Part shown: positions 1-34,566 of the stretch, one piece after another
Numbering within the stretch: the first letter of the stretch is position 1
How the letters are laid out: every line of letters starts with the position of its first letter
Assembly (NCBI GenBank): GCA_016206785.1
Contig: JACQQV010000021.1
Coordinates: 63,509 to 127,508 of the forward strand
Direction of reading: 5' to 3'
Source: Candidatus Omnitrophota bacterium
GTDB taxonomy: Bacteria; Omnitrophota; Gorgyraeia; JACQQV01
Length of the DNA stretch: 64,000 nucleotides
Program-made: the position numbers and the translations under genes
The notes under the pieces: generated by a model
Told to the model about the DNA's origin: nothing
The model's database searches: none
What the model saw: only the letters and a program-made list of their open reading frames with translations

Positions 1-46
1 TCGTCCACACCCTTCAGTTTTTCATTGAGGAGAAATGGCCACTCCC

Positions 47-1844
47 CTAGGAGGGAATCGAAAAGAGTTGCCAGAAGCGCTCCGACGCCCTGATAATAGA
101 GGGGAAGGAGTTCTTCTTGAAATCGATTTTCAATATCGCGGTGACGTTTCATTTTGTCAAGAAAGGAATCAGCAAATGGATATCCCCAGGCATGCTTTCC
201 GAGAGCGTAAACCAGGGCCTTCTGGTTTTGGGGGGAGACGCTCTCTACCTGTCTCAAGACATATCCGAATATTCGATCCTGTTTCAAACGCATCCGAAAG
301 GGTAAACCTTCAAGAGATCCTATGAGTCCCTCGACGAAATAAGGCTGATCTTCTTGACCCAGAGAACTCGCCCAATAATCGATCCTCTTCAAGAAAGCCT
401 TCTCGGAAGAACTCCACGCATTGCCGATCTCCTTAAGATAAAAAGGTTGATACATCCTGTCTAACTGTTTGACCCAAAGGAAAAGTTTTTCGAGATTTTC
501 CAGTGTCTCAGGGCGATAGACCATGTCTTGGCTTAAACCAAGATGGAAGTCGAACCGTTCGGAAGGAGATAAGCGCATATCCAATGCCTTTATTAAGTCT
601 GAAAGTTGGTTAAGATCCTGACCATGGCGATACGCAAGGGCCCACCCCAATTGACGATAGGAATACCCTCGATGCTTCAAGGAAAGGGCGAATTCTTTGA
701 ACCTCAGGAGATTCAGTTCACCCACACATCCCATCCCTAAAAGCAAAATAAGAATACCCAAAGAGACCTTTTGAAAGATTCTTGAGAAGTTTCCTAAACG
801 GACAAGTGCCAGAGCGATCACAGCAAAGAAAAAAGGAAAAAGAGGAACATAATAGCGGAATTCATAGATCCCCAGATGGAATCGACTGAGGCTTGCAGCG
901 GATAGGAAGAAGAGGGGGAACAGAAAAAAGAAATAAATTTTTTTATTCTCCTTTTCAAACTGGCAGAGGATGCCATAAGAAAAAAAGAGGGCGGCGTAAT
1001 AGACGATGTTGAAAAGTGTTATATGCGATAAGACATGGGTTCCTTCTCGATAATTGAAGGAAAAGAGTTGTATCAAACGAAGCGTCGCCAGTTTCAAGAA
1101 ACGAAAAGGAATAATCAGGGGCCGTTCCACAGAAGAATAGACAAAAGCCTCCTTGACACGATCGAAGCCATGAAAACCATAGAGGCCATTATAGAGTAGC
1201 CAGGGACTGAAACCGACGAGAAAAAAAAGGAGGAAAAGATAAAATTCTTTTTTTCGGAAGAGCCTTCGATCCTCGTAGCACCAGAAGAGAATAAAGCATG
1301 CGAGACTGACGACCTGCTGATAACTGAAATAAGTGCCGAATCCTTCTACAAGACCTAACCAGGCTGCACAACGCAGAGAATGTTTTCCATCGTACAGAAT
1401 ACGAAAGAGGAAGAAGAGTCCGAGTGCCGTAAAAAGAAGGGATTCGGCATGAACCCCCATTGCATACATCGCATAGAGGGTAAGATACGGAGGTGAAAAA
1501 AGGTAAAGGAGCGCTATATAAAGAGCTGCTTTCCTTCCAAAAAAGCGCTTCATGAACAGAGCCCATGTGAGGAACGTCCCCAATTGGAAAAAGAGGGCCG
1601 TCAGGCGAAGGACAAAAACACTTTTCCCAAAGACAAGAAACGAGGGGACCGTCAGGACTCCATAGACCAGGCTCCCGCCACTGTAGTGATCTGCAGCATA
1701 ATCAAAAAAGGGGATCTTTAATCCCTGGATGAGTTCTTTGGCAATGGTTCCTCGCTGGAGTTCTTCTGTGAAAGGCTCTGGGAAACAGTAAAGAAGGTGG
1801 AGAATTCGGGTGAGCAGAAAAACAATGGCGAGAAGAAAAATCAT
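47..1844 (-). CDS. GT-C fold membrane glycosyltransferase (ArnT/PMT-like, GT39/GT83-type), ~599 aa; absent from the supplied ORF track
   Basis: Manual minus-strand translation from ATG (revcomp of cat 1842-1844) to TAG (47-49) gives an uninterrupted ORF: MIFLLAIVFLLTRILHLLYCFPEPFTEELQRGTIAKELIQGLKIPFFDYAADHYSGGSLVYGVLTVPSFLVFGKSVFVLRLTALFFQLGTFLTWALFMKRFFGRKAALYIALLYLFSPPYLTLYAMYAMGVHAESLLF... It has at least 10 hydrophobic helices. The N-terminal region resembles ArnT/PMT-family polyprenyl-phosphate-sugar transferases. Its start abuts the stop of the upstream rSAM gene (TAAATG). Confidence 0.7.
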
Positions 1845-2930
1845 TTACGGGGCGGGTCGTCTCAAGCGCTCCTCGGCCAGAGCGAGCGCTTCGTAGTAAG
1901 GAACAGGGGCATCGAAGTTGTCCGCCTCCCCCCATCCATCCCGAGGGCAGCCACGGTAAAGGGGATGAAGACTTTTTCCGTCGGAAGGCTCTTTTTTCGC
2001 ATAAGCATCAAACCAATCAAGAAGGGTGCGCCACCCCTCGTGAACGGTTCCCTTCATTAGATTATACTTAGGGAAAGGAAAACTGACGCAAAAATTCATC
2101 TCCCCATAGGGAGTAATCGCGCAGGAGTTTTGGGCAGCCCGGCAATTCATCCGCCCTTTCCATCGCCTCGGTCCTTCCTCTCCTTTCTCGAGCGGTTTGT
2201 GGTAAACAAGAGGAAGGGGATCTTGAAGAAGTTGAGCCGCTTTGTCAGGATCGAGGCGGTAAACAAGCGGCTCGAGTGAACCGTCCGACTTGGGATGAAT
2301 TACGGTACTGGTTACGGCTCGGATTCCCCACCCCTTGGCCATCGCCTGCATCCTCTCCACTTCCTCAACGTTCACAGTCATGGCAGGAATGATGAGCGTT
2401 ACGGGGATCTTCTTCTTGATCAACCGCTCAATTCCAGAGATACATTTAGAGAAGGAGCCTGGAACAGAGGTCACTCTTTCATAAATCTTCCTTGTCGCTC
2501 CATAAAGTGAGAGGTCGACCTCCAGAGGAAGGAGAGATTGGAGACAATCGGCAATTTCCTCTGTCAGGAAGGTCCCATTTGTTTTCAGGGTAACGGCGAA
2601 TCCCTCCTCTTTAGCGCGAGTCAAAATGTCAAGAAAGTCTCTCCGCGTAAACATCTCTCCGCCTGTCAGGGTTAAAGAAAGGCATCCTTCTGTTCGGAGT
2701 TCTTTAAAAATAGAAATGATTTTCTCCGTCGGCATCTCCTCTTTCTTGGCCCTATGGGTAGGATTATAGCAATGGACGCAGCGGAGATTGCACCCGTAGG
2801 TCAGTTCCATAGTCGCCTCTAAAAGGGTCCGTGAGGATTCTGTTTTGCTAACGACGTTATCCCAAAACTCGATAGGAGAACGCTCCGGGATCGAAGGGGT
2901 TTTAGGATCTAGCGAGGGCATAGGCTTCAT
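1845..2930 (-). CDS. radical SAM/SPASM-domain peptide maturase-like protein (PqqE/MftC-like), 361 aa
   Basis: ORF track. Carries the CxxxCxxC motif LTYGCNLRCVHCYNP and a C-terminal Cys-rich SPASM-like region (CRAAQNSCAITPYGEMNFC). Paralogous to the two rSAM genes at 4040-6087. Confidence 0.8.
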   Translation of the reverse strand: MKPMPSLDPKTPSIPERSPIEFWDNVVSKTESSRTLLEATMELTYGCNLRCVHCYNPTHRAKKEEMPTEKIISIFKELRTEGCLSLTLTGGEMFTRRDFLDILTRAKEEGFAVTLKTNGTFLTEEIADCLQSLLPLEVDLSLYGATRKIYERVTSVPGSFSKCISGIERLIKKKIPVTLIIPAMTVNVEEVERMQAMAKGWGIRAVTSTVIHPKSDGSLEPLVYRLDPDKAAQLLQDPLPLVYHKPLEKGEEGPRRWKGRMNCRAAQNSCAITPYGEMNFCVSFPFPKYNLMKGTVHEGWRTLLDWFDAYAKKEPSDGKSLHPLYRGCPRDGWGEADNFDAPVPYYEALALAEERLRRPAP

Positions 2931-3831
2931 CAGGACGCGCCGCCTCCTTTAGAAAAGAAATAGCGCTTTGTTCTTTCACAAATCCGAATTGATAGCATGG
3001 GACACTCGAAAAAAGCTCTTCACAGAAGGCGAGCGCTTTTTGAATCCGTCCGCCATCCCAGTGTGGGAGGAAAAGTTGTGGGAGAAGAACCTCTGGGAAG
3101 TCTGACAGTGAAAGAGGCTTAAGAGAATTCTGAGAAGCGTGCTGAAGAAAAAAAAGTCCCCTAAGAGGCGCCGATTCTTGAGAGATTCGGAATGTATCCC
3201 CTGGCCACGGAGTTCCATGAAGGAAAAAAGAAGCGCCATCCTTTCGAATAATGACGGTCTCATCGCTCAAGATAGAAACGCCTCCTGTTCCAAGAAACAG
3301 ATGCGCAAGCGTACTCTTTCCCGAGCCAGAAGGACCCACAAAAGCTCTTCCCTCTCCCCCTTCTCGAATCCCAAGTCCATGGACAACGACCCCCTCTCCT
3401 TGACTTAAGAGGTGCACAAGAAGAATCTGCCCTAAGGGCTTCATAAATTCTGTAAAGGGCCAGCGGGGCTTTATCGGCGGAAAGAGTCTATGGAGAGGTC
3501 CAGAAACCCATCCAGGGGCAGCATAGACTTCACCTTCCGAGAAATCTTTCGTAAGGTGAGCAAGGAACTGTCTCTGCTTTGTCTTTGAATGAAAGGTTTC
3601 GATCCAATAATGGCCATCGCTTTCGTAAAGGGCCCAATGGTCTTTCAGTTCAAAAAGGACCCTTTCTTTTAAGAAATCGGGGAAACCGTTCTCGCAATGA
3701 ACCGTCAGATGAACCCTTGGTTTCCCCCGAAGAGGAAAAAGATCGTACCTGAAGGGAAAATCTCGTGGATGAGAATTTTCCCACTCAATGTGAAATCCAA
3801 TTCCTCCGATTTCGAGACTGAAAGAAGGCAT
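2902..3831 (-). CDS. HPr kinase C-domain-like P-loop protein (HprK-related kinase, as found in PqqD/lasso-peptide-kinase contexts), 309 aa
   Basis: The C-terminal half carries VVHGLGIREGGEGRAFVGPSGSGKSTLAH, which resembles the HprK P-loop GxSGxGKS(E/T). There is no N-terminal HPr-kinase regulatory domain. It lies 8 nt downstream of the candidate precursor ORF. Confidence 0.6.
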   Translation of the reverse strand: MPSFSLEIGGIGFHIEWENSHPRDFPFRYDLFPLRGKPRVHLTVHCENGFPDFLKERVLFELKDHWALYESDGHYWIETFHSKTKQRQFLAHLTKDFSEGEVYAAPGWVSGPLHRLFPPIKPRWPFTEFMKPLGQILLVHLLSQGEGVVVHGLGIREGGEGRAFVGPSGSGKSTLAHLFLGTGGVSILSDETVIIRKDGASFFLHGTPWPGDTFRISQESAPLRGLFFLQHASQNSLKPLSLSDFPEVLLPQLFLPHWDGGRIQKALAFCEELFSSVPCYQFGFVKEQSAISFLKEAARPDEAYALARS

Positions 3832-3842
3832 CTAAGGGGTAC

Positions 3843-4034
3843 CTAAGACGAGATCGCGCTGTTTCCCTGCGTTCTACTCCAACTTCGGCATCCATTTGCC
3901 CTACAGGTATTCGTACCGCTGTCAGAAGCAGAGGTCCCATTGGTGGCGCACTGAGAGAGGATCGCCTGTTCATGGTTTAACCGGATTCTAAAAATTTTCG
4001 GTGTTTCATACATCCTTTTCATTGTCTCTTCCAT
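3843..4034 (-). CDS. candidate RiPP precursor peptide, 63 aa (MEETMKRMYETPKIFRIRLNHEQAILSQCATNGTSASDSGTNTCRANGCRSWSRTQGNSAISS)
   Basis: A small ORF wedged between the rSAM gene (ends 4040) and the HprK-like gene (starts 3831). Minus-strand upstream sequence is gataAGAAGGAGGTaaagacaATG, a near-perfect Shine-Dalgarno about 7 nt before the ATG. The peptide has a charged leader-like N-terminus, then a Ser/Thr/Gly/Asn-rich segment with 3 Cys, and ends in Ser-Ser. Confidence 0.45.
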   Translation of the reverse strand: MEETMKRMYETPKIFRIRLNHEQAILSQCATNGTSASDSGTNTCRANGCRSWSRTQGNSAISS

Positions 4035-4039
4035 TGTCT

Positions 4040-5119
4040 TTACCTCCTTCTTATCTTTTCAGCCAAAAGATGCGCTGTCTGACAGAAATGATCGACCGGC
4101 ATCTCACTCTCTCCATTTTCAAAACGTGCCGGAAAAGGCATCTTCCCGCACATCGAATAGACCGTACACTGCCGACAGGGCGAATCGGTTTGATAGGTCA
4201 TTGTACGAATTTTTGGAAAAACTTCTTGGATCGCTTCCTGAAAGGAGTAATGTTTTAATGAAACTCTCGGCTCCCCAATAAAAGTACACGTTCCAAGCTC
4301 TCCCCAAGCCGAAACATGAAACGTATTGGTCCCGCAACCGCAGCGGTAAAGCCGATCGGTCGGCTCATCCGAAATTTCCACACAACGATCCTCGGTATCT
4401 ATGTCCTCGCCATTTATTTCAAGTTCAACAATTTCCTCTGGAGTGAGTCGATAGGCGCAGGGCTTCAAAGAACCATTCAAATCAGGATAGATATCGGTAC
4501 TGAAACGGAACTCCAGCCCGAAACTTTCGACCAGTTCTTTAATCTCATGGAGCCTTCCCCTGTTGAGCGTCATCGCTTTTGTTTTCACCTTGACCGGAAG
4601 TTTCCGTTCCACAAGAAGCCGCAATCCTTCAACAAATCGCTTGAAGGATCCGGGAACCTGAGTCACCGCGTCGAAAACCTCTTCCGTTCCTCCGTGGCAA
4701 CTCGTCTCAATCAAAAAAGGTGGGTCCTTCGCAAGCCGATCCGCAATCTCGGGAGTGATTATGGTGACATTCGTAAAAAGAATGAGAAGAAATCCTTTTT
4801 TCTTTGCATAGTCATAAATATCAAAAAAGTCCTTCCGCATGAAGATTTCGCCACCCGTAAGACAAAGCCAGAGACACCCCGCTTCATGGATTTCATCGAT
4901 CATCCGAAGGACCTCTTCATAAGAAAGCTCTTTTTGAATGTCCTGAGGGTTATTGTGGCAGTCGGTATAGCAGTGGACACAACGGATATTGCATTTATAG
5001 GTAAGTTCGATCTGGCCCCGGATTGGCATCCTTAAGTCATATCCCTTGTCATTGATCGCACTGCTGAAATCATGATACTCTATCTCAGGAATCGTTTCCT
5101 TCATCTTAAGGCCTCTCAC
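4040..5119 (-). CDS. radical SAM/SPASM-domain protein, 359 aa
   Basis: ORF track. Carries IELTYKCNIRCVHCYTD (CxxxCxxC) and SPASM-like C-terminal cysteines (CRQCTVYSMCGKMPF, CGCGTNTFHVSAWGELGTCTF). Confidence 0.8.
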   Translation of the reverse strand: MRGLKMKETIPEIEYHDFSSAINDKGYDLRMPIRGQIELTYKCNIRCVHCYTDCHNNPQDIQKELSYEEVLRMIDEIHEAGCLWLCLTGGEIFMRKDFFDIYDYAKKKGFLLILFTNVTIITPEIADRLAKDPPFLIETSCHGGTEEVFDAVTQVPGSFKRFVEGLRLLVERKLPVKVKTKAMTLNRGRLHEIKELVESFGLEFRFSTDIYPDLNGSLKPCAYRLTPEEIVELEINGEDIDTEDRCVEISDEPTDRLYRCGCGTNTFHVSAWGELGTCTFIGEPRVSLKHYSFQEAIQEVFPKIRTMTYQTDSPCRQCTVYSMCGKMPFPARFENGESEMPVDHFCQTAHLLAEKIRRR

Positions 5120-6087
5120 GGAGTTGAAGAAACCGCTTTGATTGGGATAAATCCGTTCTTCTTGAACATAAACTCCTTTTTAGGAAACCGGCATGGAAAA
5201 TGGGGAAGGTGATTGTAAAATCCATCGTGAAAAGAACCTTTTCGAAGGTCGTAACCCTTCATCCGGTTCCCGGAACAGAGTTGAAGCATCCCATACGCAT
5301 CGATATGAAAATTAAAGAAGCCTGATTCGCATTGGTAGGTTTCTGCCTCTCGTAATTGGATTTCCTTTTCCCGAAGCATCTGCGGATCTTTTTCCTCGAT
5401 CTCTCTCAGTTCTTTTTCAGAAAGTTGATATTCAAAAACATCCTCTGAGCCATCCAGGCGGTTCCGGATCTCCTCGCCAAATTTGAAGGAAACGTTTCCC
5501 AGACCCTTCACAAAAGCCCTGATCTTCAGAATCTCATCCCGATTCACCGTGAGTCCCGTCACCTTCAAAACAAGGTGGAGGTTTCTTTCTAAAAGAAGGT
5601 TGATCGCCCGTAATACTTTCTGAAAAGAGCCTTCTCCCTGCGTCACCTTTTCAAAAATCTCTTTCGATGTGGCATGAAGACTGATCTCGACGGAAAAAGG
5701 AGGATTTTCTTTCAGAAAATCGGAAACCTCCTCGGTAATCAAGGACCCATTGGTAAAAAGGGTGATTAAAAATCCCTTGTCCTTGGCAACCTTATAGATC
5801 TGGAAAAAATCTTTTCGCATAAAGATTTCGCCACCCGTCAAGGTAAGCCAAAGACATCCTCCTTTATGAAGTTCACCTAAGATCCGTAGGACTTCCTCAG
5901 TTTGAAGTTCTTTGGGAAAATATTGAGGATGATTATAGACATCTGTGTAGCAATGGATACAGTGAAGATTGCAGCGGCAAGTCAATTCCCATTGTCCGAT
6001 AAGAGGGAGTCTTCCCCTCTCACTCTTTGCGACGAGCCGCTTGAAAAACTCACGATCCGTAACAGAAGAAAGAAAATCGCATGCCAC
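5116..6087 (-). CDS. radical SAM/SPASM-domain protein, 323 aa
   Basis: ORF track. Carries WELTCRCNLHCIHCYTD (CxxxCxxC) and C-terminal Cys residues (CESGFFNFHIDAYGMLQLCSGNRMKGYD). It overlaps the downstream paralogue by 4 nt, which suggests translational coupling. Confidence 0.8.
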   Translation of the reverse strand: MACDFLSSVTDREFFKRLVAKSERGRLPLIGQWELTCRCNLHCIHCYTDVYNHPQYFPKELQTEEVLRILGELHKGGCLWLTLTGGEIFMRKDFFQIYKVAKDKGFLITLFTNGSLITEEVSDFLKENPPFSVEISLHATSKEIFEKVTQGEGSFQKVLRAINLLLERNLHLVLKVTGLTVNRDEILKIRAFVKGLGNVSFKFGEEIRNRLDGSEDVFEYQLSEKELREIEEKDPQMLREKEIQLREAETYQCESGFFNFHIDAYGMLQLCSGNRMKGYDLRKGSFHDGFYNHLPHFPCRFPKKEFMFKKNGFIPIKAVSSTP

Positions 6088-6092
6088 CCGCT

Positions 6093-6395
6093 CTATTCTC
6101 CCTTTTCCGCACCCGCAAAATGTTTCGGCTCTATGAGTCCTTCCCTCCTCAGTTTTTTAAGGAAGGAAAGCACATCATGCTTCACCCTTTTGGGTTCTGC
6201 TTCGAAGTTTTGTTCAATGTGTGTGATAAGTTCCTGAACGGTTCTACTCCCGTCCAACGCCTCCCAGATCGCTGCGCCAACAGGAGTGAGTTTGAGGAGG
6301 TCTCCCTCATCCTGATCCACGAGGATCGCTTCTTCCTCTACCCGTCGCCAAGGAATTCTTCCATTCTTCTCGAAGATATCCGTAAGTCTAAACAT
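6093..6395 (-). CDS. PqqD-family (RRE-like) small protein, 100 aa
   Basis: MFRLTDIFEKNGRIPWRRVEEEAILVDQDEGDLLKLTPVGAAIWEALDGSRTVQELITHIEQNFEAEP... matches the PqqD/RRE pattern: P..R..GE..L......L.N..A..IW.L.DG..T..E. Confidence 0.65.
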   Translation of the reverse strand: MFRLTDIFEKNGRIPWRRVEEEAILVDQDEGDLLKLTPVGAAIWEALDGSRTVQELITHIEQNFEAEPKRVKHDVLSFLKKLRREGLIEPKHFAGAEKGE

Positions 6396-7947
6396 GAAAA
6401 TGGATGAGGCGTAAAAAATAATTTTTTGTCTCTAGCCAAAGAAGAAAAAGGATTTTCCTTGCTTCTCTTCCCATTTTGTAGGTGAGGCCCTCACGAAAAT
6501 AGATCCAAAAAAGACGGAGATGTAGAAGTAAGGGATGGAAACCGAGACGCGCCGCTTCAAGTAGGTTCTCTTTTGCCAGACGAGACTCTTTTTTCTTGAG
6601 AAAGGCGGAACCGATCCAGAATTTCAGAATCGCCTCCGGCCCTTTGAGTTCGAGCGACTTCCGGAAAGCACTCAGGGCTCTATCCCACTCTCCCTGCTCG
6701 AAAAAAAGAGACCCTATCCCATAATAAGCCGTGGCCAGTCTGGGATTCTTCGAAAGGGCCTCTTCATAATAAAAGAGCGCCTGGGAAAAATCTTTCTCCG
6801 CCCTAAATGTATGGCCCAAACCGCAGAGTGCATGGGCGTGATTCGGGTCGAGGGTAAGAATCTTTTTGTACTCTTCCTCTGCCTTTTTCCATTGACCAAG
6901 ATTCTGATAGGCCGGTCCAAAATTGTTGTAGGCGGTGGCGTAGGTGGGATCCGCGGAAACCGCTTCTCGATAAAGTCGGGAGGCCTCTGTTTTCTCTCCC
7001 CTTTTTAGAAAGAGCAAAGAAAGATTGTAAAAGCTTGCAGCATCTTTTGGATTGACCCCAAGGGCCTTTCGATACTCCAAAATCGTCTCCTCCACCTTCC
7101 CCTCCTCTTCAAAGGCTTGTGCAGATCTTTTGTGATGATAAGCATCGTTTGGAGCGGAGGGGTCTCGGATAAGTTGTGCAAGGGCGTCTCCAAAATATTT
7201 ATAAGGAAGTGGAGTAAATCCCCCCTCGACAGAATAGGCAATCGTGACACAATCACTCCGGATACCCTTTGATCGCAAGGCGTCGACAACATTCTCTGGG
7301 AAGAGCCACGGTTTCTTACAGCGAGGGTCTTCATCCCCATGTTCTAAAAACCCTGAGATGAGGAAATCGGTATCAATATCAAGAAGAACCTCTTCTTCAA
7401 TAGTGGGAAGGTTCTGAAGAGTGCAGACAATCAATGGAAAGCCATAAAGTGTTGCCTGAGCCTTTGTTCCCTCAATACGGATATCGGTAAACGCTTCTGG
7501 ATGGTTTCTCCGAAATTCTCGAAAGATATAACCCATCTCTTTTTCCCAAGAAACCCCTCGGGGGGCTTCCGGGGTCGCCCAATAAAAAGCCCGAAGAAGG
7601 CCCTGCCGGAGAGCAGGGCAGATATAATTTCCGATATGGACGAAGGACTCTGTCCCTCGATCTGTGAAGTTCCAAAAGATCTTTTGTTGGGTAAGCGCTT
7701 CTAATTCTTGAGGAGAGGAGATACTGAGGAGATCGGAGAAGGACCTCTCAGGAATCCAATTGAAGTCGATGTGGGCATCGATATGGAGGAGGATGCGGTT
7801 TGAAAAGTTCCCTCTCTGCCAGGCCCAGAGGGCCTCATCATGATCTTCCATCAGGGTGACGGCAGGGAGAGGATCAATTCCTACCCGATCGTCTTGGGGA
7901 GTTGAAGACCTTCTTAAAGAAGGTTGGGTCGCTAACGCGTCGGTCAC
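6388..7947 (-). CDS. fusion protein: N-terminal UPF0489-like domain (putative metal-dependent hydrolase fold) plus C-terminal TPR repeats, 519 aa
   Basis: The N-terminus carries MEDHDEALWAW...ILLHIDAHIDFNW, which resembles the EDHHEVL...HFDSHPD signature I associate with UPF0489. The C-terminus carries at least 6 TPR-like repeats (AYNNFGPAYQNLGQWKKAEEEYKKILTLDPNHAHALCGLGHTF...). Confidence 0.6.
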   Translation of the reverse strand: MTDALATQPSLRRSSTPQDDRVGIDPLPAVTLMEDHDEALWAWQRGNFSNRILLHIDAHIDFNWIPERSFSDLLSISSPQELEALTQQKIFWNFTDRGTESFVHIGNYICPALRQGLLRAFYWATPEAPRGVSWEKEMGYIFREFRRNHPEAFTDIRIEGTKAQATLYGFPLIVCTLQNLPTIEEEVLLDIDTDFLISGFLEHGDEDPRCKKPWLFPENVVDALRSKGIRSDCVTIAYSVEGGFTPLPYKYFGDALAQLIRDPSAPNDAYHHKRSAQAFEEEGKVEETILEYRKALGVNPKDAASFYNLSLLFLKRGEKTEASRLYREAVSADPTYATAYNNFGPAYQNLGQWKKAEEEYKKILTLDPNHAHALCGLGHTFRAEKDFSQALFYYEEALSKNPRLATAYYGIGSLFFEQGEWDRALSAFRKSLELKGPEAILKFWIGSAFLKKKESRLAKENLLEAARLGFHPLLLHLRLFWIYFREGLTYKMGREARKILFLLWLETKNYFLRLIHFHV

Positions 7948-7950
7948 CGA

Positions 7951-8235
7951 TTATTTCTCTCGGATGATTCCGGTTTCCTTAAATTGCGCCAGAAGCCCCA
8001 AAAGATCTTTCTCTGCAACGTGAGGATCTATCTCAAATTCGGAGATAACCGTCTCGCAGACCTCTCGGACCGATTTCTTTCCATCAATCAGTTCCCAAAT
8101 CCTCGCCCCTACCTCATTCAACGTGAAGATGGCAGGTTCTTCCCCTAAGGTTTGACGAATAGGGACAAGGACCGTTTCTTCCGCGATTTTCCTTGATACA
8201 ATATTGGGAGATTTTTCGTAACTTGTTTCTAGCAC
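7951..8235 (-). CDS. PqqD-family (RRE-like) small protein, 94 aa
   Basis: ...PNIVSRKIAEETVLVPIRQTLGEEPAIFTLNEVGARIWELIDGKKSVREVCETV... fits the PqqD pattern. This is the second stand-alone copy in the locus. Confidence 0.65.
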   Translation of the reverse strand: MLETSYEKSPNIVSRKIAEETVLVPIRQTLGEEPAIFTLNEVGARIWELIDGKKSVREVCETVISEFEIDPHVAEKDLLGLLAQFKETGIIREK

Positions 8236-8278
8236 TGTAAATAACCTCGTTTCATCATAAAAGATTTAGACCGGTTTG

Positions 8279-9085
8279 TCAAGGTTTTTGTGGGGTGAGA
8301 ATCGCATTGCAGTTGCTGAAATCCATCTCCACAACTTTAAAGTTCGAGTTCTCTATCTCACTCAAAAGCTCCGAGGGTTTGCTGAAAATGTGCCAATAGT
8401 GACCCATAAAGCAGACGTCTCCTTCTTCTAGCTCCCGATTGCCGCCAGAAAGGATTGCAAGCCACTTTTTGAGCCGGAACTTCCAACCCTTTTCCCGGAA
8501 ATCATCTCTACCACAAAACTCTAGATAAAAAAATCCGTCGTCTTTGAGATGAGATCGCATCTTTCTTAAAAAGGCGATCCGCCTTGTGCGGGTAGGAATT
8601 TCGCTATACATCGACTGGCTCAGAAAAAGCGCGTCATGCTTTCTTGCCGGTGATAAACTATCAAGTACATTTCCCACTTCAAAGTGGCAATTTTTTAAGG
8701 AAAGGGCACGGACATGTTCTTTTGCTCTTTCTACAAGATCCTGGGAGGTCTCGATTCCCGTAACCTCAAATCCTAATTTCGCCAAGGCGAGGGATTCCCG
8801 ACCACCGCCAGACATCAGTACAAGACACTCCTTTTTTCCTTTTAAATATTTTGTCACAAATTGAGATTCTTCTGGGCTCAGTCCCCTCGTTCGTACCGCT
8901 TCCCCCGCCAAAGCCTCTGAAAAGTCCCTCCGATTATAAAACTGTTCAACAAATTTTTCGAGATCTTTAGGTTTTGAGAGAACTAGTACAAGTGACCCAA
9001 AGGCTGAAGAAATCTTTTCCTGAAAACGATTCAAGAGAAGGTCGATGCGCACCAAAACGGAAACAAGGAAAAACCGAGCACTCAT
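8279..9085 (-). CDS. class I SAM-dependent methyltransferase, 268 aa
   Basis: Carries the motif I-like segment CLVLMSGGGRESLALAKLGFEVTGIETSQDLVERAKEH, and DALFL/post-I motifs. Confidence 0.65.
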   Translation of the reverse strand: MSARFFLVSVLVRIDLLLNRFQEKISSAFGSLVLVLSKPKDLEKFVEQFYNRRDFSEALAGEAVRTRGLSPEESQFVTKYLKGKKECLVLMSGGGRESLALAKLGFEVTGIETSQDLVERAKEHVRALSLKNCHFEVGNVLDSLSPARKHDALFLSQSMYSEIPTRTRRIAFLRKMRSHLKDDGFFYLEFCGRDDFREKGWKFRLKKWLAILSGGNRELEEGDVCFMGHYWHIFSKPSELLSEIENSNFKVVEMDFSNCNAILTPQKP

Positions 9086-10161
9086 CTATTTTTTAAGAGG
9101 GGTTCAATGACTTCTACCAAGGCTTGGGCAGCGAGTCGATGACCACGTTCATTGAGATGAAACGGGTCTCCTTTTCTATAAAGTTTTTCTCTCAGGTGAC
9201 GTTGTAAACTTTCCCGGATATCGATCAGCGGAACCTGCAAGTTGTGCGAAATGCGTCGGAAACGATAAAAGGAGGGACGGATTTTTAAGATCCCCAGCTC
9301 GTGAAGATCCGGAAAATAGGCAAACAACACTTGAGCGTGAGAGCGACGTGCTAACTGAACCAGCTCGCGCAACCGTTGTTCCGCCTCCTGCCAGTAGCGC
9401 GCCTCCCGAGATCCTGTTGCGTTGTAAGAGACCTGAAGCGCCCAAAAAGAAATAACGGAACCGATGCGCTGATCCAAAAATTTCAATAAGAAACTGTGGG
9501 GCAGCAAGGAAGAGTAGAAATTGTGAAAAGGCGACGATGGAGAAGAAACCTCGGGTTCCGGTAAAAGACAAAGCCTCCCTTGATCATCGACGTTAAAGAG
9601 GGATGGGTAAATGTCGTTCCTATAGAAATTAACAATAACAATATCCGGTCTCAAAAGAGGAAGGAGTTCCTTAAAGATACGAACTTCCTGTTCAGTATTA
9701 TAATTATCAGAGGCGGCATTGAATACAATAGGAGGATTACGTGGAAATTTTTCCTTGAGTAACACTTCAAGTCTTTTACAAAAAGTTGTCTCAAAAGGAA
9801 CCCCGTAGCCAAATGTGATAGAGTCTCCCAAACAGAGGACGACATCGTCTTTTTCTTTCACCTTCGGCCATTCCGGTCCCCGCCAACCCTGTGTATTGAT
9901 TTCATACCATGCCCCTTGCCAGCGAATGCGTGCTCCTCGTCGATACCGGTGGACGACCTCAGGATCTGCGACAAAAAGACCGGGAATGTCGGACATGAAA
10001 AGATAAGGGTCTGGCGCATTTTCCGGCAAGGCCTTGATCACCTCCGCTTCCGGCATACGACGAGAGACAAAAACAAACCGATAAAATCGGAGGATCCCTT
10101 CTGCCGCCAAGCAAGCGAGGCACAAGCCGACTACCACAAGAAAAAATCGTGTACGAGTCAC
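9082..10161 (-). CDS. SGNH/GDSL-family hydrolase with N-terminal signal/TM segment, 359 aa
   Basis: Carries VVLCLGDSITFGYGV (the GDSx block). The N-terminus MTRTRFFLVVVGLCLACLAAEG is hydrophobic. The start codon, by my reading of the sequence, is GTG (cac 10159-10161). Confidence 0.65.
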   Translation of the reverse strand: MTRTRFFLVVVGLCLACLAAEGILRFYRFVFVSRRMPEAEVIKALPENAPDPYLFMSDIPGLFVADPEVVHRYRRGARIRWQGAWYEINTQGWRGPEWPKVKEKDDVVLCLGDSITFGYGVPFETTFCKRLEVLLKEKFPRNPPIVFNAASDNYNTEQEVRIFKELLPLLRPDIVIVNFYRNDIYPSLFNVDDQGRLCLLPEPEVSSPSSPFHNFYSSLLPHSFLLKFLDQRIGSVISFWALQVSYNATGSREARYWQEAEQRLRELVQLARRSHAQVLFAYFPDLHELGILKIRPSFYRFRRISHNLQVPLIDIRESLQRHLREKLYRKGDPFHLNERGHRLAAQALVEVIEPLLKNR

Positions 10162-10166
10162 GGCTG

Positions 10167-10175
10167 ATTATACCA
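10167..10175 (-). promoter_or_regulatory. extended -10 promoter candidate (TGGTATAAT on minus strand) for the SGNH/methyltransferase/RiPP operon
   Basis: Plus-strand attatacca 10167-10175 is minus-strand TGGTATAAT. It sits only 6 nt upstream of the GTG start at 10161, which implies a leaderless or near-leaderless transcript. Confidence 0.35.
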
Positions 10176-10178
10176 CTC

Positions 10179-10207
10179 TTGACCTCCTGAAAAAACAGAT
10201 TTATGCT
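10179..10207 (+). promoter_or_regulatory. sigma-70-type promoter candidate for the 10231 gene: TTGACC-N17-TATGCT
   Basis: TTGACC at 10179-10184, a 17-nt spacer, then TATGCT at 10202-10207, about 24 nt before the ATG. Confidence 0.4.
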
Positions 10208-10230
10208 AAACTATATCGAGAAAGAGAAGG

Positions 10231-12126
10231 ATGGTAGAAACAGTGAAGCCTATTGGTGTTTTAACCGATCTTCTTCAAATAACGGACATTCCAGAGATTA
10301 TCGATCTTTTGATCGCGTCCAAGAAGGCCCGTTTCACCATTGAAGGCTTCAGCATGTACCCCACCCTCCGAGTAGGAGACATCGTTGAGGTGGACCCCCT
10401 AACAAAAGAAACGCTTGAAGTAGGAGACCTTGTTGTTTTTCAAAAAGAAAAGAAACTCATCTGTCACCGCCTGGTAGAGATTTTTGAGAAAAACGGGGAG
10501 GCGTGGATTAAGACAAAGGGGGATACGGTCGAGGAGAGTGACACCCCACTCGCCCTTCGTCAGATCCTGGGAAAGGTGACGCGCATTGAGCGAGACGGAA
10601 TTCCTCGGATCCCCTCGGCCGTTCCTCAAAAACTTTCCTTTGCAGAAATCATCTTCTTCTCTGCCTATCGGCAATTCGGGGGAAAACTCAGACCGAAACT
10701 GAGAACAGTTTTCTTACGCAGTCTCTCTTCTCTTTTATTCCGCCGCGTGTATCGCTTCCTGTTCCGTCCCGATGTGATTTATTCTGTCAGAATTCCAACT
10801 GCTTCGACTCCTGATCCGAAATTCTGGCGGTCTGTTCAAAGTCTCCCGGGGGCGAATGAGTCTTTACAGGACGCTTCGGTCTATCGCTTTTTTGCAAAGG
10901 TAGGCAAAAATGTCGTTGGAAGTCTTGAGGTGCGGACTCTCGATAAAACCGCTTCGCAATGGAGGGTTTCCCATCTTTTCGTGAGGGCAAGGTACCGGGG
11001 GTGCCACGTTGCAACAACACTCCTGAGAAGATCGTTTCAGAGGCTCAGACGACAAGGAGCCTCCTTATTAAGCATAGAAGTGGGTCCTCAAAATCGTCCC
11101 GCACTTTCCCTTCTAAAACAACTAGGCTTCGACGACGCCGTACAAAAAGATCCTTTCGTCCTTCAGAAAGACCTTTCGTTCCCGCTCAAGCGCTTAAGAG
11201 GCGAAAAAGAACTGCAACCGTTTCTTTATCACGCTCTTCCCTCTGATACGCTCAAAGAAAGCTTCCTCAGGAGCGTCGCAAAACACCTCTTCTTCGAACA
11301 GGCCCTTCTTGAGATAGACACCGTTTTCAAAAATGCGGGAATACCTTTTATCGTACAGAAGGGAATGGCACTTGCGTATACCCTTTACCCCGACCCTGCG
11401 ACGCGACCGATGGTGGATATCGATCTGTATCTACGTAAAAACGATGTCCCCTCGGCCATATCCCTTTTAGAAGGACTCGGCTATGAACTGGGAGCAGCCA
11501 AGTTTCGAGAAGAACTGATCACCTTCGGGGGAGAGCTCAGCTTCCACAAAAAAAATGCCCCTTTTGTTGAACTCCACTGGTGCCTTGAACAGTATGAGCG
11601 ATTGAAAGGAATTGTAAAAGTTGACGAGGAAGACCTGTGGAAAAGGACTGTCTCCTATACGATTTCAGGAAGAAAATTTCTGACCCTCTGTTCAGAGCAT
11701 CAACTGCTCGCGCTTTCCATCCACCTCGGTCTCATTCATCGGTTTCGTGGCTCTCTCAAGTGGTTTCTGGACATCGATCAGTTCGTCATGAAATTCGGGG
11801 AGGACCTGGATTGGGAGGAACTTTTTCAAACCGCACGGCGATGGGGAATTGAACGGGTGTTTTGCCAAGTGCTCCTTGCAACCCAGGAGCTCTTCAACAC
11901 CCCCCTTCCTCCTCTTCCGATTCAAAATTCTTCATTCTTCCTGAGACATCCCATCTTTCAATGGTTCCTCCCAGATCGTCCCTCCGACCGCCTCCGGGTC
12001 CTCTTCCGGATCTTCTTCCCGAGCCGGGAATGGCTCATCTACCGATATCGCCTCAAACGGCGCGACCTCATCCCCTTCCACCGCTTCCTCCATCCTCTCT
12101 TTGTTCTTATCGGCAAGACAAGGTAG
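10231..12126 (+). CDS. tri-domain protein: N-terminal S24/S26-type peptidase-like domain, central GNAT acetyltransferase, C-terminal nucleotidyltransferase-like (NTP_transf_5-type) domain, 631 aa
   Basis: The N-terminus carries EGFSMYPTLRVGDIVEVD...DLVVFQKEKKLICHRLVEIF...KTKGDTV (compare signal-peptidase/LexA G-S-M-x-P-T-L...GD motifs). The central region ...SLEVRTL...VRARYRGCHVATTLLRRSFQRLRRQGASLLSIEVGPQN is GNAT-like. I assign the C-terminal region to uncharacterised nucleotidyltransferases. The upstream RBS is GAGAAGGatg. Confidence 0.6.
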   Translation: MVETVKPIGVLTDLLQITDIPEIIDLLIASKKARFTIEGFSMYPTLRVGDIVEVDPLTKETLEVGDLVVFQKEKKLICHRLVEIFEKNGEAWIKTKGDTVEESDTPLALRQILGKVTRIERDGIPRIPSAVPQKLSFAEIIFFSAYRQFGGKLRPKLRTVFLRSLSSLLFRRVYRFLFRPDVIYSVRIPTASTPDPKFWRSVQSLPGANESLQDASVYRFFAKVGKNVVGSLEVRTLDKTASQWRVSHLFVRARYRGCHVATTLLRRSFQRLRRQGASLLSIEVGPQNRPALSLLKQLGFDDAVQKDPFVLQKDLSFPLKRLRGEKELQPFLYHALPSDTLKESFLRSVAKHLFFEQALLEIDTVFKNAGIPFIVQKGMALAYTLYPDPATRPMVDIDLYLRKNDVPSAISLLEGLGYELGAAKFREELITFGGELSFHKKNAPFVELHWCLEQYERLKGIVKVDEEDLWKRTVSYTISGRKFLTLCSEHQLLALSIHLGLIHRFRGSLKWFLDIDQFVMKFGEDLDWEELFQTARRWGIERVFCQVLLATQELFNTPLPPLPIQNSSFFLRHPIFQWFLPDRPSDRLRVLFRIFFPSREWLIYRYRLKRRDLIPFHRFLHPLFVLIGKTR

Positions 12127-13207: not shown

Positions 13208-14023
13208 TCACCTCGCTTCCTGAACAACTTCCTGGATGGTCTGCTCGTCGATGGAAGTGGCTTTTTTGCCCAATCCTGAGAGAAGGGACAGATTGCATAA
13301 AGTATTGATCTTCCTCGGAATGCCTCCGCTATGTTCGTAGATGAGCTGGATCGCATCGTCCGTAAAGATCGGGTCCTCTCGACCGGCGGTCGTAAGCCGG
13401 GTCTGGATATAATGGCGCGTCTGCTCTTCGTCCAAACCCTCCAGATGGCATTTGATCTCGATCCGCTGCGAAAAGGGCTTGAATCGGTTCACATGTTCCC
13501 TCAACTCAGGTTGGCCGAACAAAAGGAGGGTCAGTAAAAACTGGTCGTTTGACTGAAAGTTGAGGAGGAGCCGCAATCCCTCCAGCACAGAAGGATCTTC
13601 GATCACATGGGCCTCATCCACAATAATGACCGTCTCGCTCCCATCCTTCAAATTATCGTAAAGGATATCCTTCAGCTCATTGAGGAGAAATGTCGCCACA
13701 AGATCCGATTTCTTCGTCGGGAGGTTCTTTCCGCCCCCTAATGCTTGAACGATTGCAGCCAGAAGTTCAATGTAATCCAGTTTTGGATTCCGGATGAAGG
13801 CGATCTTATATTTCTCTCCAACCAGCCCTTTCAACAGGGCTTCCCCCAATAACGTCTTTCCACATCCAAAGATCCCTGTCAACATGGCTGCCCCCACCTT
13901 CTCTTGGACGGCATACAAGAGCCTTGAAAGGGCTTCGTCATGTTGGGGGGAGGCGTAGAAGAATCGGGGATCGGGAGTATTTTGAAAGGGCATGAGATTG
14001 AATTTCCAATATTCTTTATACAT
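13208..14023 (-). CDS. ExeA/MshM-like AAA ATPase (putative secretion ATPase of PEP-CTERM loci), 271 aa
   Basis: Walker A is LTGIFGCGKT and Walker B is VIIVDEAH. The gene lies next to the PEP-CTERM/exosortase locus. Confidence 0.7.
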   Translation of the reverse strand: MYKEYWKFNLMPFQNTPDPRFFYASPQHDEALSRLLYAVQEKVGAAMLTGIFGCGKTLLGEALLKGLVGEKYKIAFIRNPKLDYIELLAAIVQALGGGKNLPTKKSDLVATFLLNELKDILYDNLKDGSETVIIVDEAHVIEDPSVLEGLRLLLNFQSNDQFLLTLLLFGQPELREHVNRFKPFSQRIEIKCHLEGLDEEQTRHYIQTRLTTAGREDPIFTDDAIQLIYEHSGGIPRKINTLCNLSLLSGLGKKATSIDEQTIQEVVQEAR

Positions 14024-14032
14024 GTTCAGACT

Positions 14033-14458
14033 TCAATTCAACATAATCTTTTCGTCTTTTTCGTTATAGGTAAACCGAGGTTTGCCATTCACCTTATGCA
14101 CCTCGGCGTCCGTCACGTTGAGGGTCCCATCCGGCGAAACCGTCACCCAAAAATCGACATCGAGGGCTTCCCCGGTCGTCTGGTCCACAAAATCGGCACA
14201 GGAGAAATAACCATCCTTGGTGGATAGTTTTCCGACCCGCTCATGGACCCGTTGAAAGGTGAGTTTTCTCTCTTGGCCTGTTTTATCGTCATGGATCGGG
14301 AAAAAGCCGCCGTTCTTATGGGTCACTTCCAAGGCATACGTCTGCATCGCCGTCCGGATTTCCTCATGGGTCGGCTCTACAGCATAAAGCTTCGTTCCAG
14401 CGAATGCCACAACGCCTGCGATGACCGCATATAAAAGAAGACGACTGTCGCCTTTCAT
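14033..14458 (-). CDS. hypothetical secreted/periplasmic protein, 141 aa
   Basis: ORF track. The N-terminal signal-like segment is MKGDSRLLLYAVIAGVVAFAG. No recognisable family. Confidence 0.45.
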   Translation of the reverse strand: MKGDSRLLLYAVIAGVVAFAGTKLYAVEPTHEEIRTAMQTYALEVTHKNGGFFPIHDDKTGQERKLTFQRVHERVGKLSTKDGYFSCADFVDQTTGEALDVDFWVTVSPDGTLNVTDAEVHKVNGKPRFTYNEKDEKIMLN

Positions 14459-14459
14459 C

Positions 14460-15431
14460 CTACACCTCCTTTTGTTTTGCGTGAACGTCTCTAAATTGAA
14501 ACTCTGTTTCTACCCTTTGAAAAGGTTTCCCGTCCAACTCGACATACGGATAGAAAAAAATATTGACCGGCTCGCCCTTCTGTTTTGGAACCAGTTGGAT
14601 ATTACGCCCTGTACTGATGAGAAGACGGTTTGCATCATAAGTTCCGAAGTAATACTCCCGCTTCTCTGGGTATTTCCATGCTTCCGAGGCATCCACGGAA
14701 ATCCACCCCTTTCCGTCGACATAAAACTCGGCCCAGCAGTGATACCCTGGAATTTTACCCTCTGATTCCTGTTCAGGGATAGGGATCCCGATTTTAAAAC
14801 GCGAGGGAATTTTACTCGCCCGCGCCAAGGAGATAAAGAGCGAATGAAAATCGGTGCAGTTCCCTTTGCCGACAAGACAGGCTCGCGCCGTATCCCCATT
14901 TCCCCATCCCGGTGTCGTCTTGTCATACTGCATATGGGAAAGGACGTAGTCATAAATGGCCCTTCCCTGTTCTAAAGGAAACACCTTCCCTTGGGTTACT
15001 TCTTTGGACAACCCCTGAATTCTTTCATCCACCACCATCCATTGGCCCGAGCCGAGGTGGAGACGTCTTTGAAAGGGGGTCTCCTGCAAGGGGTTTCTTC
15101 TTTCCTCTACAGTCACATGGTAGGTAATGGCAACGTCGATCTTTTGGGGAAGTGGCGGCTTCAGAAAAAGATGGAGGATCTCATTGCCATAGCGAGGTTC
15201 CTGAAAGATTTGATAAGGGGAAGAGGCGACGATTTTTCGGTCCAGGATCCTCTGGTTGGCCTCTGTGCGTGCCAAAGGGATCCAGATCCGGATCTGTTTT
15301 GCGTCGGGGGGAATTTCCTGAATCAAGGCATGGTAAGTGAGCTCAAACTCCCGCTCTGATTCTCGGGCTTCACTTTTTGAATCACTCAATATCAATAATG
15401 GGGTTACAATAAGTACTATCCATTTCCTCAT
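14460..15431 (-). CDS. transglutaminase-like cysteine protease domain protein with signal peptide
   Basis: Carries GKGNCTDFHSLFISLARASKIPSRF...GYHCWAEFYVDGKGWISVDASE, the Cys-His-Asp transglutaminase core. The likely start is MRKWIVLIVTPLLILS at about 15431, preceded by a GAGGAG RBS. The track ORF is over-extended to 15524. Confidence 0.75.
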   Translation of the reverse strand: MRKWIVLIVTPLLILSDSKSEARESEREFELTYHALIQEIPPDAKQIRIWIPLARTEANQRILDRKIVASSPYQIFQEPRYGNEILHLFLKPPLPQKIDVAITYHVTVEERRNPLQETPFQRRLHLGSGQWMVVDERIQGLSKEVTQGKVFPLEQGRAIYDYVLSHMQYDKTTPGWGNGDTARACLVGKGNCTDFHSLFISLARASKIPSRFKIGIPIPEQESEGKIPGYHCWAEFYVDGKGWISVDASEAWKYPEKREYYFGTYDANRLLISTGRNIQLVPKQKGEPVNIFFYPYVELDGKPFQRVETEFQFRDVHAKQKEV

Positions 15432-15444
15432 CTCTTTTTTCTCC

Positions 15445-30189: not shown

Positions 30190-30210
30190 GGTGTGTGTTG
30201 CAAAAAGACC

Positions 30211-30537: not shown

Positions 30538-30579
30538 TCAAAATCACTTCCTTAATACAATACCCAGATTCGCCGAGAC

Positions 30580-32012: not shown

Positions 32013-32023
32013 TCTCACCCCCA

Positions 32024-34545: not shown

Positions 34546-34566
34546 AGGGCTGTCTTCCCGAAAAAT

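Follow-up and report, generated by a model that had tools for sequence, protein, structure and literature searches.

A radical SAM and HprK-type kinase gene cluster of uncultured bacteria predicted to make a modified peptide with three cysteines and a C-terminal serine

Among the described systems closest to the gene cluster analysed here are the linear polyphosphorylated peptides (LPP), encoded by lppA-K-B-S-D-N in Paenibacillus alginolyticus (Bacillota), in which the kinase LppK polyphosphorylates a serine of the core, namely Ser3, and the peptidase removes the leader bearing YxxPxVL... once a recognition element (RRE) of such ribosomally made, post-translationally modified peptides (RiPPs) presents it (Popov et al. 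2026 Nat Commun, PMC13381572). The labels in Supplementary Data 2 of that study comprise TIGR02228, which marks the leader peptidase LppS, PqqD, NTP_transf_5 and the kinase annotations TIGR04249, TIGR04352 and TIGR04355, three models also matched by the kinase described below, with no Radical_SAM entry (PMC13381572). In lasso peptides, HprK-type kinases phosphorylate the C-terminal Ser of the precursor with little other sequence requirement, and in pseudomycoidin a nucleotidyltransferase puts one or two hexoses on the C-terminal phosphate (PMC8498205). The cluster in question lies at positions 1-12126 of a 64,000-nt stretch of contig JACQQV010000021.1 of a Candidatus Omnitrophota bacterium (assembly GCA_016206785.1), hereafter the window, where genes for PqqD proteins, three radical S-adenosylmethionine enzymes (rSAMs), a kinase and a nucleotidyltransferase surround the gene of a 63-aa precursor. 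It probably makes a ribosomal, heavily modified peptide (at a probability of roughly 0.6) by a pathway with PqqD, rSAM, kinase, nucleotidyltransferase, arginase and peptidase steps. The nearest prior computational description is the SynChlorMet (Scm) cassette, with ScmC, the PqqD protein ScmD and the rSAM/SPASM proteins ScmE and ScmF, which is to our knowledge a computational family for which no precursor has been named.

The cluster shares with LPP four of the five core functions (an archaeal-type signal peptidase, a discrete PqqD RRE, an HprK-like kinase and NTP_transf_5), as well as a YxxPx[VIL] leader motif and the lack of a lasso cyclase. However, of the LPP leader YxxPxVLxHQxIxFETxxS the window family shares YxxPx[IV] only, and the LPP C-terminus is variable, with phosphorylation at core Ser3, while the window family has an invariant C-terminal Ser and three invariant Cys. 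Moreover, LPP clusters have no rSAM in the published domain table, whereas the window type has three, often with an arginase, a GNAT and a GT-C enzyme; LPP clusters have an MsbA-type exporter, which the window cluster has not (ABC-2 type pairs appear in some related loci); and LPP have been reported only from Bacillota, while the window type appears in Omnitrophota, Acidobacteriota and others. With paeninodin and pseudomycoidin the cluster has in common an HprK-type kinase, a conserved C-terminal Ser, a phosphate-decorating nucleotidyltransferase and a YxxP/WxxP leader, bound in those lasso peptides by a PqqD-like B1 protein (PMC8498205), but rSAMs take the place of the Asn-synthetase-like cyclase and the B2 transglutaminase peptidase. 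In particular, no lasso cyclase or B2 peptidase domain was found in the 12 cluster proteins, and the Transglut_core gene (14460-15524) is not part of the operon but located beyond miaA. With SynChlorMet it shares a P-loop protein, a PqqD and paralogous PqqE-like rSAMs, but the models TIGR04249, TIGR04248, TIGR04250 and TIGR04251 reach only 23/125, 44.8/100, 80.9/400 and 87.1/400 bits (score/cut-off), and the window family has three rSAMs, a peptidase and NTP_transf_5, with its precursor identified.

The maturases SkfB, AlbA, StsB, PapB and CteB likewise combine an rSAM with auxiliary-cluster domains and act on Cys-containing substrates, but usually bear an N-terminal RRE and work singly on several Cys, while the window has three RRE-less paralogues with discrete PqqDs, and no family threshold is reached. 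The peptide arginases OspR, FlmR and OhkR resemble the window enzyme in the metal-binding His/Asp residues and in Arg-bearing cores, whereas the latter is fused to TPR repeats and has a PqqD of its own; selidamide follows the same arginase and GNAT logic, although the window GNAT is fused to the leader peptidase. Altogether, the cluster resembles an LPP/phospho-lasso tailoring module combined with sacti-/ranthipeptide-like rSAM chemistry and a landornamide/selidamide-type arginase, and it is a member neither of the LPP family as defined, nor of the lasso peptides, nor of the curated SynChlorMet equivalogs. In the literature searched, which covered few subscription journals, neither the name SynChlorMet, nor the leader motif strings of the precursor, nor any description of the rSAM trio combination or of the precursor family was found; the rSAM/RRE mining papers found there made no mention of a kinase, a nucleotidyltransferase or Scm, and NTP_transf_5/PF14907 appeared only in an unrelated phosphonate paper. 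A preliminary description of this DNA had regarded PqqD, HprK-related kinase and NTP_transf_5 as a recurrent trio of unknown function; the recurrence stands, but the LPP core has been partly characterised (PMC13381572). Its remark that this was not familiar as a described RiPP class thus holds for the rSAM combination and the precursor family and not for the kinase/PqqD/NTP_transf_5 core. The cluster supplies a precursor for ScmC-type rSAM cassettes so far known only as database models, extends to Omnitrophota, Acidobacteriota and other uncultured phyla a kinase/nucleotidyltransferase/signal-peptidase module described from Bacillota in 2026, and indicates that radical-SAM chemistry can be combined with the module. 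The cluster brings together three recent lines of research, although new RiPP classes appear regularly and the find is not revolutionary.

By ORF and domain searches, the features of the cluster were as follows.

1..1844, minus strand: polytopic membrane protein of PMT_2 (GT-C type), last operon gene (Pfam PMT_2, 39.3 bits, cut-off 26.1).
1845..2930, minus strand: rSAM-A, 361 aa (Pfam Radical_SAM, E 2.5e-24).
2902..3831, minus strand: ScmC-family P-loop kinase of HprK/PEPCK fold, 309 aa, predicted peptide Ser kinase (Pfam PF27840 ScmC, precomputed).
3843..4034, minus strand: precursor peptide, 63 aa (GGAGG 8 nt upstream of the ATG; family data).
3846..3848, minus strand: codon of the C-terminal Ser63, predicted phosphorylation site (Ser end across the family).
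3885..3887, minus strand: codon of Arg50, after the third Cys, predicted Arg-to-Orn site (co-variation with the arginase).
4040..5119, minus strand: rSAM-B, 359 aa (Pfam Radical_SAM, E 2e-20).
5116..6087, minus strand: rSAM-C, 323 aa (Pfam Radical_SAM, E 2e-25).
6093..6395, minus strand: PqqD-1, 100 aa (Pfam PqqD, E 7.5e-19; best NCBIfam match lasso_PqqD_Bac).
6388..7947, minus strand: peptide-arginase-like domain (~7168-7860) with TPR repeats (~6538-7140) (UPF0489/FlmR_OhkR_N and TPR families).
7951..8235, minus strand: PqqD-2, 94 aa (Pfam PqqD, E 3.5e-18; best NCBIfam match lasso_PqqD_Bac).
8279..9085, minus strand: class I SAM-dependent methyltransferase, 268 aa (Methyltransf_25/31/11).
9082..10161, minus strand: SGNH/GDSL hydrolase with an N-terminal hydrophobic segment, first operon gene (Lipase_GDSL_2, E 1e-12).
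10231..12126, plus strand: fusion of Peptidase_S24/S26, GNAT and NTP_transf_5, 631 aa (Peptidase_S24 27.7, Acetyltransf_1 45.5 and NTP_transf_5 157.8 bits, the last with E 5e-46).

The operon thus comprises 11 minus-strand genes at 1-10161, with its left end open, and adjacent genes share 4-29 nt or have gaps of 3-43 nt between them; the divergent gene starts 69 nt from it. These searches agreed with the gene roster given in the preliminary description (rSAMs, two PqqD, P-loop protein, UPF0489/TPR, methyltransferase, SGNH and GT-C) and found all three domains of the divergent peptidase-GNAT-nucleotidyltransferase fusion that it had named, but its extent has to be corrected from ten minus-strand genes running from 8235 down to 47. 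Furthermore, position 47 is not the end of the GT-C gene, as was thought: its frame is open through base 3 and runs off the window edge. The complete gene (689 aa) is found on the identical contig L001 (6126-8195; related loci are cited by such numbers), where it is followed by an AAA_22 gene, hflX, hrcA, grpE and dnaK, and therefore the cluster ends at the PMT_2 gene.

The window precursor has the leader Y9-x-x-P12...L19-N-H-E-Q-A-I-L26, followed by C29, C44, C49, R50 and the C-terminal S63. On codon comparison, its 63-codon ORF is a genuine coding precursor under purifying selection: 57 nt of the leader (Y-E-T-P-K-I-F-R-I-R-L-N-H-E-Q-A-I-L-S) showed 8-11 synonymous and 0 non-synonymous differences from three relatives. 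In nine further loci, small ORFs located next to the homologous P-loop gene can be aligned with this ORF. As a single-sequence query the peptide found one relative only, and a 10-sequence profile was needed to reach the family, which then gave 473 proteins; the 120 listed were 57-71 aa long, free of Pfam domains and named only 'hypothetical protein'. Moreover, 1.84 billion representatives were scanned exhaustively with HMMER, which yielded 720 clusters (50% identity) at E<=0.001, while no Pfam or NCBIfam model matches the family, so that model-based tools could miss a precursor of this large group.

The family leader motif is YxxPx[IV]..LNHEQA[IV]L, and the pattern Y-x-x-P-x(5-9)-L-x(2-3)-[QE]-A-[IVL]-L-x-x-C was present in all 120 listed members, with exactly three Cys in 115 of them. 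The terminal residue was Ser in all 120 listed members and in 112 of 120 further small members from the HMMER scan (232/240), most of the eight other ends looking truncated or frame-shifted. Besides this Ser, only the three Cys are invariant in the core. Their spacing varies among family members (C1-C2 14-20 residues, C2-C3 4-18, C3 to the end 12-19), and the intervening sequence varies, with much Ser, Gly, Ala and Thr. Furthermore, K or R directly follows Cys3 in 99% of members, and in the same analysis Asp, Asn or Ser was common at position -6. The three Cys, the Lys/Arg after Cys3 and the terminal Ser are direct predictions that are cheap to address by experiment.

Some sequences related to the precursor were found apart from any cluster. 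Full-length orphan precursors at L077 9944-10183 and L032 2919-3101 had no cluster gene within up to 10 kb, and an identical truncated copy of 38 aa (ending ...SAQVSPFR) appeared on the five contigs L086-L090 (e.g. L088 9564-9680), also without cluster genes. At L094 6010-6981, on an 8.7-kb contig with no recognisable cluster genes, three precursors in tandem have a W-I-T-P (WxxP) leader and contain a double Cys ('LSCC'); they may be a divergent subfamily. The protein P0267 (395 aa), which has six tandem repeats resembling the leader part 'L-x-P-x-Q-A-L-L-G-Q-C', matched the precursor profile with E 2e-12 and was rejected as an unrelated repeat protein.

A scan of metagenomes seeded with the precursor alignment gave 80 loci, which were profiled by jackhmmer from the window proteins, and synteny was counted in the 21 distinct metagenomic loci where the precursor has 4 kb or more of sequence on either side. 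PqqD, rSAM and a ScmC-type protein accompanied the precursor in 19 of the 21, the two exceptions being one orphan precursor and one truncated copy, which bears out the earlier proposal of one operon merging the PqqD/HprK-kinase/NTP_transf_5 logic with rSAM maturases around a small precursor gene. They were followed in frequency by the S24 peptidase (18/21), NTP_transf_5 and exactly three rSAMs (17/21 each), arginase and methyltransferase (10/21 each), GNAT (7/21) and a PMT_2 homologue (4/21). Kinase homologues 32-72% identical to that of the window were found in the same neighbourhood on contigs labelled Omnitrophota, Aminicenantaceae, Acidobacteria and others. In particular, the order PqqD-arginase/TPR-PqqD-rSAM-rSAM-precursor-kinase-rSAM-MT-S24~GNAT-NTP_transf_5-PMT2 (MT, methyltransferase) was observed in L021, L051, L054, L072, L075 and L084, PMT2 not being detected in L075 and L084; the window has the same gene set, with the peptidase fusion divergent instead. 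The preliminary description had reckoned with scattered genes and orthologous loci lacking a small peptide gene as signs of chance; instead, such a gene is conserved in the orthologous loci and the genes are syntenic. Chance does not account for the gene set, since many unrelated contigs from metagenomes carry it in the same order. On the question of whether the GT-C gene co-occurs, PMT_2 ends the operon here and in L015, L018, L021, L051, L054 and L072, and the GNAT and methyltransferase genes likewise recur across related loci.

Parts of the cluster are also joined in single proteins, as ScmC-PqqD (seven proteins), rSAM-S24 (L004) and S24-GNAT (seven loci, where NTP_transf_5 follows). Minimal distant versions, in L014 and L097, retain an S24-like protein, PqqD, one rSAM, a Ser-ending precursor, ScmC and NTP_transf_5. 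Giant Peptidase_C25 proteins (1867 and 1264 aa) adjoin these one-rSAM clusters at L014 2113-7716 and L097 3158-6952. Upstream of the L004 cluster, at 46-6238, B12-binding rSAM genes and another PqqD are split by a DDE transposase and may be a second, disrupted RiPP module.

The three rSAMs of the window are 30-39% identical to one another, each with its own orthologue in other loci, and all have the CX3CX2C motif (C47/C51/C54 in rSAM-A). rSAM-A, which in most loci has its orthologue downstream of the kinase, ends in a short, Cys-poor C-terminal domain with 2-4 conserved Cys, C263 and C281 among them. The C-terminal domain of rSAM-C is Twitch-like (conserved C253, C271 and C299), while rSAM-B is the sole paralogue with a SPASM-like one, having eight conserved Cys there (246, 260, 262, 278, 315, 318, 324 and 346). 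The best NCBIfam match of rSAM-B is the mycofactocin maturase, its residues 28-340 aligning full-length to 7-325 of the 339 model positions, although with 115 bits against a cut-off of 265. Residues 25-272 of rSAM-C align to SkfB 105-354 (E 4e-15), and SkfB is also the best solved relative of rSAM-A (E 4e-14); this thioether synthase was the only PDB match below 1e-8 for all three. The top NCBIfam models were those of sactipeptide and ranthipeptide maturases, PqqE and MftC, all below their cut-offs. The three had been called paralogous rSAM/SPASM enzymes, of which the rSAM part stands (Radical_SAM E 2e-20 to 2e-25), while the SPASM part holds at most for rSAM-B, by its SPASM-like Cys set; the label of thioether-type maturases, also given there, is a likely prediction. 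No fused RRE was found in any of them, which fits the stand-alone PqqDs. As a general rule, 'one rSAM per Cys or thioether' was rejected by L014 (one rSAM, three Cys), L010 (two, four) and L097 (one, two).

The kinase scored best in NCBIfam with ScmC (23 bits), HprK_rel_B (22.5) and HprK_rel_A (19), all far below the cut-offs, and seven homologues from related loci were also below that of TIGR04249. In a PDB profile search with its alignment generic P-loop matches dominated, and the assignment came from a fold search: the AlphaFold model built with 27 homologues (pLDDT 91.8) shows similarity to the HprK/P-PEPCK fold, with its Walker A motif and downstream acidic residue. Moreover, no variation was seen among 54 homologues at H151, in the Walker A motif G166-x-S-G-x-G-K-S-T174 or at D190-E191. 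Thus, the HprK C-domain-type P-loop protein named in the preliminary description is supported by fold and invariant residues (Walker A, H151 and D190), with weak scores in sequence models. By analogy, Ser63 is most likely the residue phosphorylated, since it is the only invariant Ser and the same site as that of paeninodin-type kinases.

The arginase gene is overlapped by PqqD-1 by 8 nt, and a second PqqD was present in eight of ten arginase loci vs. two of nine arginase-free loci. L004, L010 and L012, in turn, have one PqqD each, to which PqqD-2 is 47-50% identical. Hence PqqD-1 is the extra RRE travelling with the arginase, and PqqD-2 is orthologous to the RRE found at the head of the cluster elsewhere. 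The preliminary description was right about the UPF0489-like and TPR domains of this gene but missed the peptide-arginase identity of the former. Pfam UPF0489/FlmR_OhkR_N (PF12640) matches with 27.7 bits (cut-off 27) and NCBIfam pept_arginase with E 5e-8 and 32.9 bits (cut-off 350), which makes it a distant member. For residues 1-265 the only PDB sequence match was the peptide arginase OspR (8brp), where H36 and D57-A-H59-I-D61 align to H12 and D39/H41/D43, and D190-I-D192-T-D194 is conserved among the homologues; the Mn ligands of OspR are H12, D39, H41, D43, D165 and D167 (PMC10028609). Peptide arginases of PF12640 convert Arg to Orn in RiPP cores (PMC12703449, PMC10028609), and in selidamides a GNAT acylates the Orn made in this way (PMC8784127).

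The residue after Cys3 follows the presence of this gene. It was Arg in 14 of 18 precursors of arginase-bearing loci (among L001-L084), while in well-flanked arginase-free loci it was Arg in 0/11 and Lys in 9/11. Read most simply, the sequence pattern suggests that a primary amine is required here, which either Lys itself or an Orn derived from Arg would supply; if confirmed, the co-variation would be a clean natural case of ornithine replacing lysine. A tie between the arginase and the total number of Arg in the core was rejected, as arginase-free loci also have 1-4 Arg. Regarding the other tailoring genes, six of the seven GNAT loci bear an arginase, and PMT2 was restricted to GNAT loci (4/4). 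In L012 (3912-5027) and L013 (2637-3752) a fusion of TP_methylase (tetrapyrrole-methylase type) and TPR lies between rSAM and kinase, a position close to that of the arginase-TPR gene of L004 and L010; the TPR part may serve as an exchangeable adaptor that binds peptides.

In the divergent fusion, the N-terminal domain matches TIGR02228 sigpep_I_arch with 59.1 bits, above the cut-off of 51.85, with S41, H79-R80 and D98 conserved, and the NTP_transf_5 domain has a conserved G and D-x-D. Methyltransferases appear in 10 of the 19 cluster loci, usually after rSAM-A. The PMT_2 translation is rich in hydrophobic segments, and its assignment as GT-C rests on the Pfam match above threshold. The SGNH gene is tied to the cluster only by a 4-nt overlap with the methyltransferase gene. 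In L018, the closest sizeable relative, the methyltransferase-SGNH pair was not detected, and the peptidase fusion, on the opposite strand, is the next detected gene upstream of PqqD-2.

The following pathway is proposed. The PqqD proteins would bind the 63-aa precursor through the Y-x-x-P-x-I leader motif, by analogy with the lasso and LPP recognition elements, and the three RRE-less rSAMs would modify the core around C29, C44 and C49, most likely by sacti- or ranthi-type thioethers; with three rSAMs and three invariant Cys, forming such cross-links would be the most economical task of the enzymes. The ScmC/HprK-fold kinase would then phosphorylate a Ser, most likely Ser63 as in paeninodin and possibly several times, and NTP_transf_5 might extend the phosphate with a sugar or a nucleotide-derived group, as in pseudomycoidin. 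To judge from the co-variation, the arginase-TPR protein, aided by the second PqqD, may turn Arg50 beside Cys49 into ornithine, a primary amine which the arginase-free clusters would encode directly as Lys. The SipW-like peptidase domain would cut off the leader in the manner of LppS, the fused GNAT could acylate the new N-terminus or the ornithine, and the methyltransferase and the GT-C enzyme, the latter presumably extracytoplasmic and acting on the Ser/Thr/Gly-rich core, might add late decorations. A more specific proposal is put forward tentatively, at somewhat less than even odds: a RiPP class of uncultured soil and groundwater phyla in which a three-Cys-stapled peptide carries a phosphodiester-linked sugar or nucleotide on its C-terminal Ser and an obligatory amine (Lys/Orn) by the third cross-link, the full version being N-acylated and then glycosylated by GT-C outside the cell. 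If true, such a stapled, phosphodiester-decorated and amine-bearing product would be a combination shown by no known natural product.

Several points weigh against this pathway. What the sequences show are genes, folds, catalytic residues, a precursor family, invariant residues and synteny, the chemical steps being predictions throughout, and all the curated equivalog models (ScmC/D/E/F, HprK_rel_A/B, peptide arginase and all rSAM maturases) score far below their cut-offs, so none of the cluster enzymes belongs to a characterised subfamily. Pfam SPASM was not detected in the three rSAMs even at E<=10, no ABC transporter was found in Pfam/NCBIfam searches of the cluster proteins (window 1-12126), and the SGNH hydrolase had no homologue in 94 related loci, being found in the window locus only. 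The co-variation of Arg and arginase has a Fisher P-value of 5e-5 that ignores the relatedness of the loci. Moreover, LppN, an NTP_transf_5 protein, had no detectable activity in the heterologous host (PMC13381572), and LPP are the only characterised non-lasso relatives, with a kinase whose target is not the C-terminal residue. The last point leads to a reading in which a kinase like that of LPP phosphorylates a Ser near the leader/core junction, for example after Cys1, while the terminal Ser is kept for an MftC-like rSAM reaction, export or protease recognition. It draws on Ser3 as the LppK site in peptides with variable C-termini, on Ser after Cys1 in 168 of 221 precursors and on the match of rSAM-B to a mycofactocin maturase, an enzyme acting on the C-terminal residue. 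However, A, M, E, T and Q also occur after Cys1, the family has S or G at the position that aligns with the phosphosite of LPP, the sole invariant Ser is the C-terminal one that paeninodin-type kinases target, and the rSAM-B score is far under its cut-off; this reading appears unlikely. Doubtful, though of some weight, is rSAM chemistry other than thioether formation (C-C or C-O cross-links, epimerisation or oxidative decarboxylation), with the Cys serving as disulfides or metal ligands or being otherwise modified. Three distinct conserved paralogues may indicate three different chemistries, as single sacti- or ranthi-synthases normally install several bridges, and the heme, PQQ, mycofactocin and MoaA models score level with the sactipeptide models, while the mismatch between rSAM and Cys numbers points the same way. 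Against this, the core, apart from the terminal Ser, is invariant only at the three Cys, and the closest solved relative of all three enzymes makes thioethers. In the thioether synthase CteB, an iron of the auxiliary cluster is free for the substrate thiolate, and a Twitch-like three-Cys domain could do likewise.

As for the product, it might be a component of the cell envelope, with the phospho-Ser extended into a glycan by NTP_transf_5 and the GT-C enzyme or with the peptide coupled to exopolysaccharide. LPP and paeninodin clusters are located in capsular polysaccharide loci, several related loci adjoin glycosyltransferase, Wzz, WecG, PIG-L or DegT genes, PMT_2 closes the operon here and in at least six other loci, and a large exopolysaccharide/exosortase locus lies 11-50 kb off in the window. 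Nevertheless, PMT2 was found in only 4 of the 19 well-flanked loci, polysaccharide genes are common neighbours in general, and housekeeping genes set the window locus apart, which makes an envelope component rather improbable. A peptide-derived redox cofactor like PQQ or mycofactocin, for which the joint presence of PqqD, PqqE/MftC-like rSAMs and a peptidase and the invariant precursor termini could be adduced, is very improbable in view of an inter-Cys core that is hypervariable in sequence and length, of several loci with 2-3 different precursors and of a cluster with no redox partner enzymes. Finally, accidental juxtaposition with a non-coding small ORF is scarcely credible: spurious small ORFs are frequent in general, but synteny is kept across loci whose kinases are only 32-42% identical, the ORF is under purifying selection and its family comprises 720 clusters. 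A ribosomal peptide modified by the proposed pathway thus remains the preferred reading.

Outside the cluster, AAA_22 ATPase genes flank it on one or both sides (window 13208-15524, L001 8155-8985, L003 5944-7568 and L005 16964-17767); in the window, one of them precedes an ORF of 141 aa and the gene of a transglutaminase-core protein of 354 aa. The cluster had been placed directly beside a PEP-CTERM/exosortase locus, which in fact lies 11-21 kb away (regulators from ~23.5 kb, PEP-CTERM genes at 29.2-32.0 kb and exosortase at 33.7-34.6 kb), with miaA, a MiaB-like gene, a beta-CASP RNase gene and rpoN in between. At 23527-63997 the window holds a very large exopolysaccharide/exosortase locus. 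It includes rpoN (22190-23527) and a sigma54 response regulator (24585-26015), together with a GAF histidine kinase and a PocR-GAF protein, as well as three PEP-CTERM proteins (29161-32024), the exosortase (33739-34617), a Bac_transf priming transferase and a DUF3485 protein. Many GT2/GT4 genes and a Wzy_C gene also belong to this locus, as do the genes of a PcRGLX/GH123 protein of 1589 aa (37615-42384) and of a protein of 1356 aa that contains a pyruvyl-transferase domain (57497-61567).

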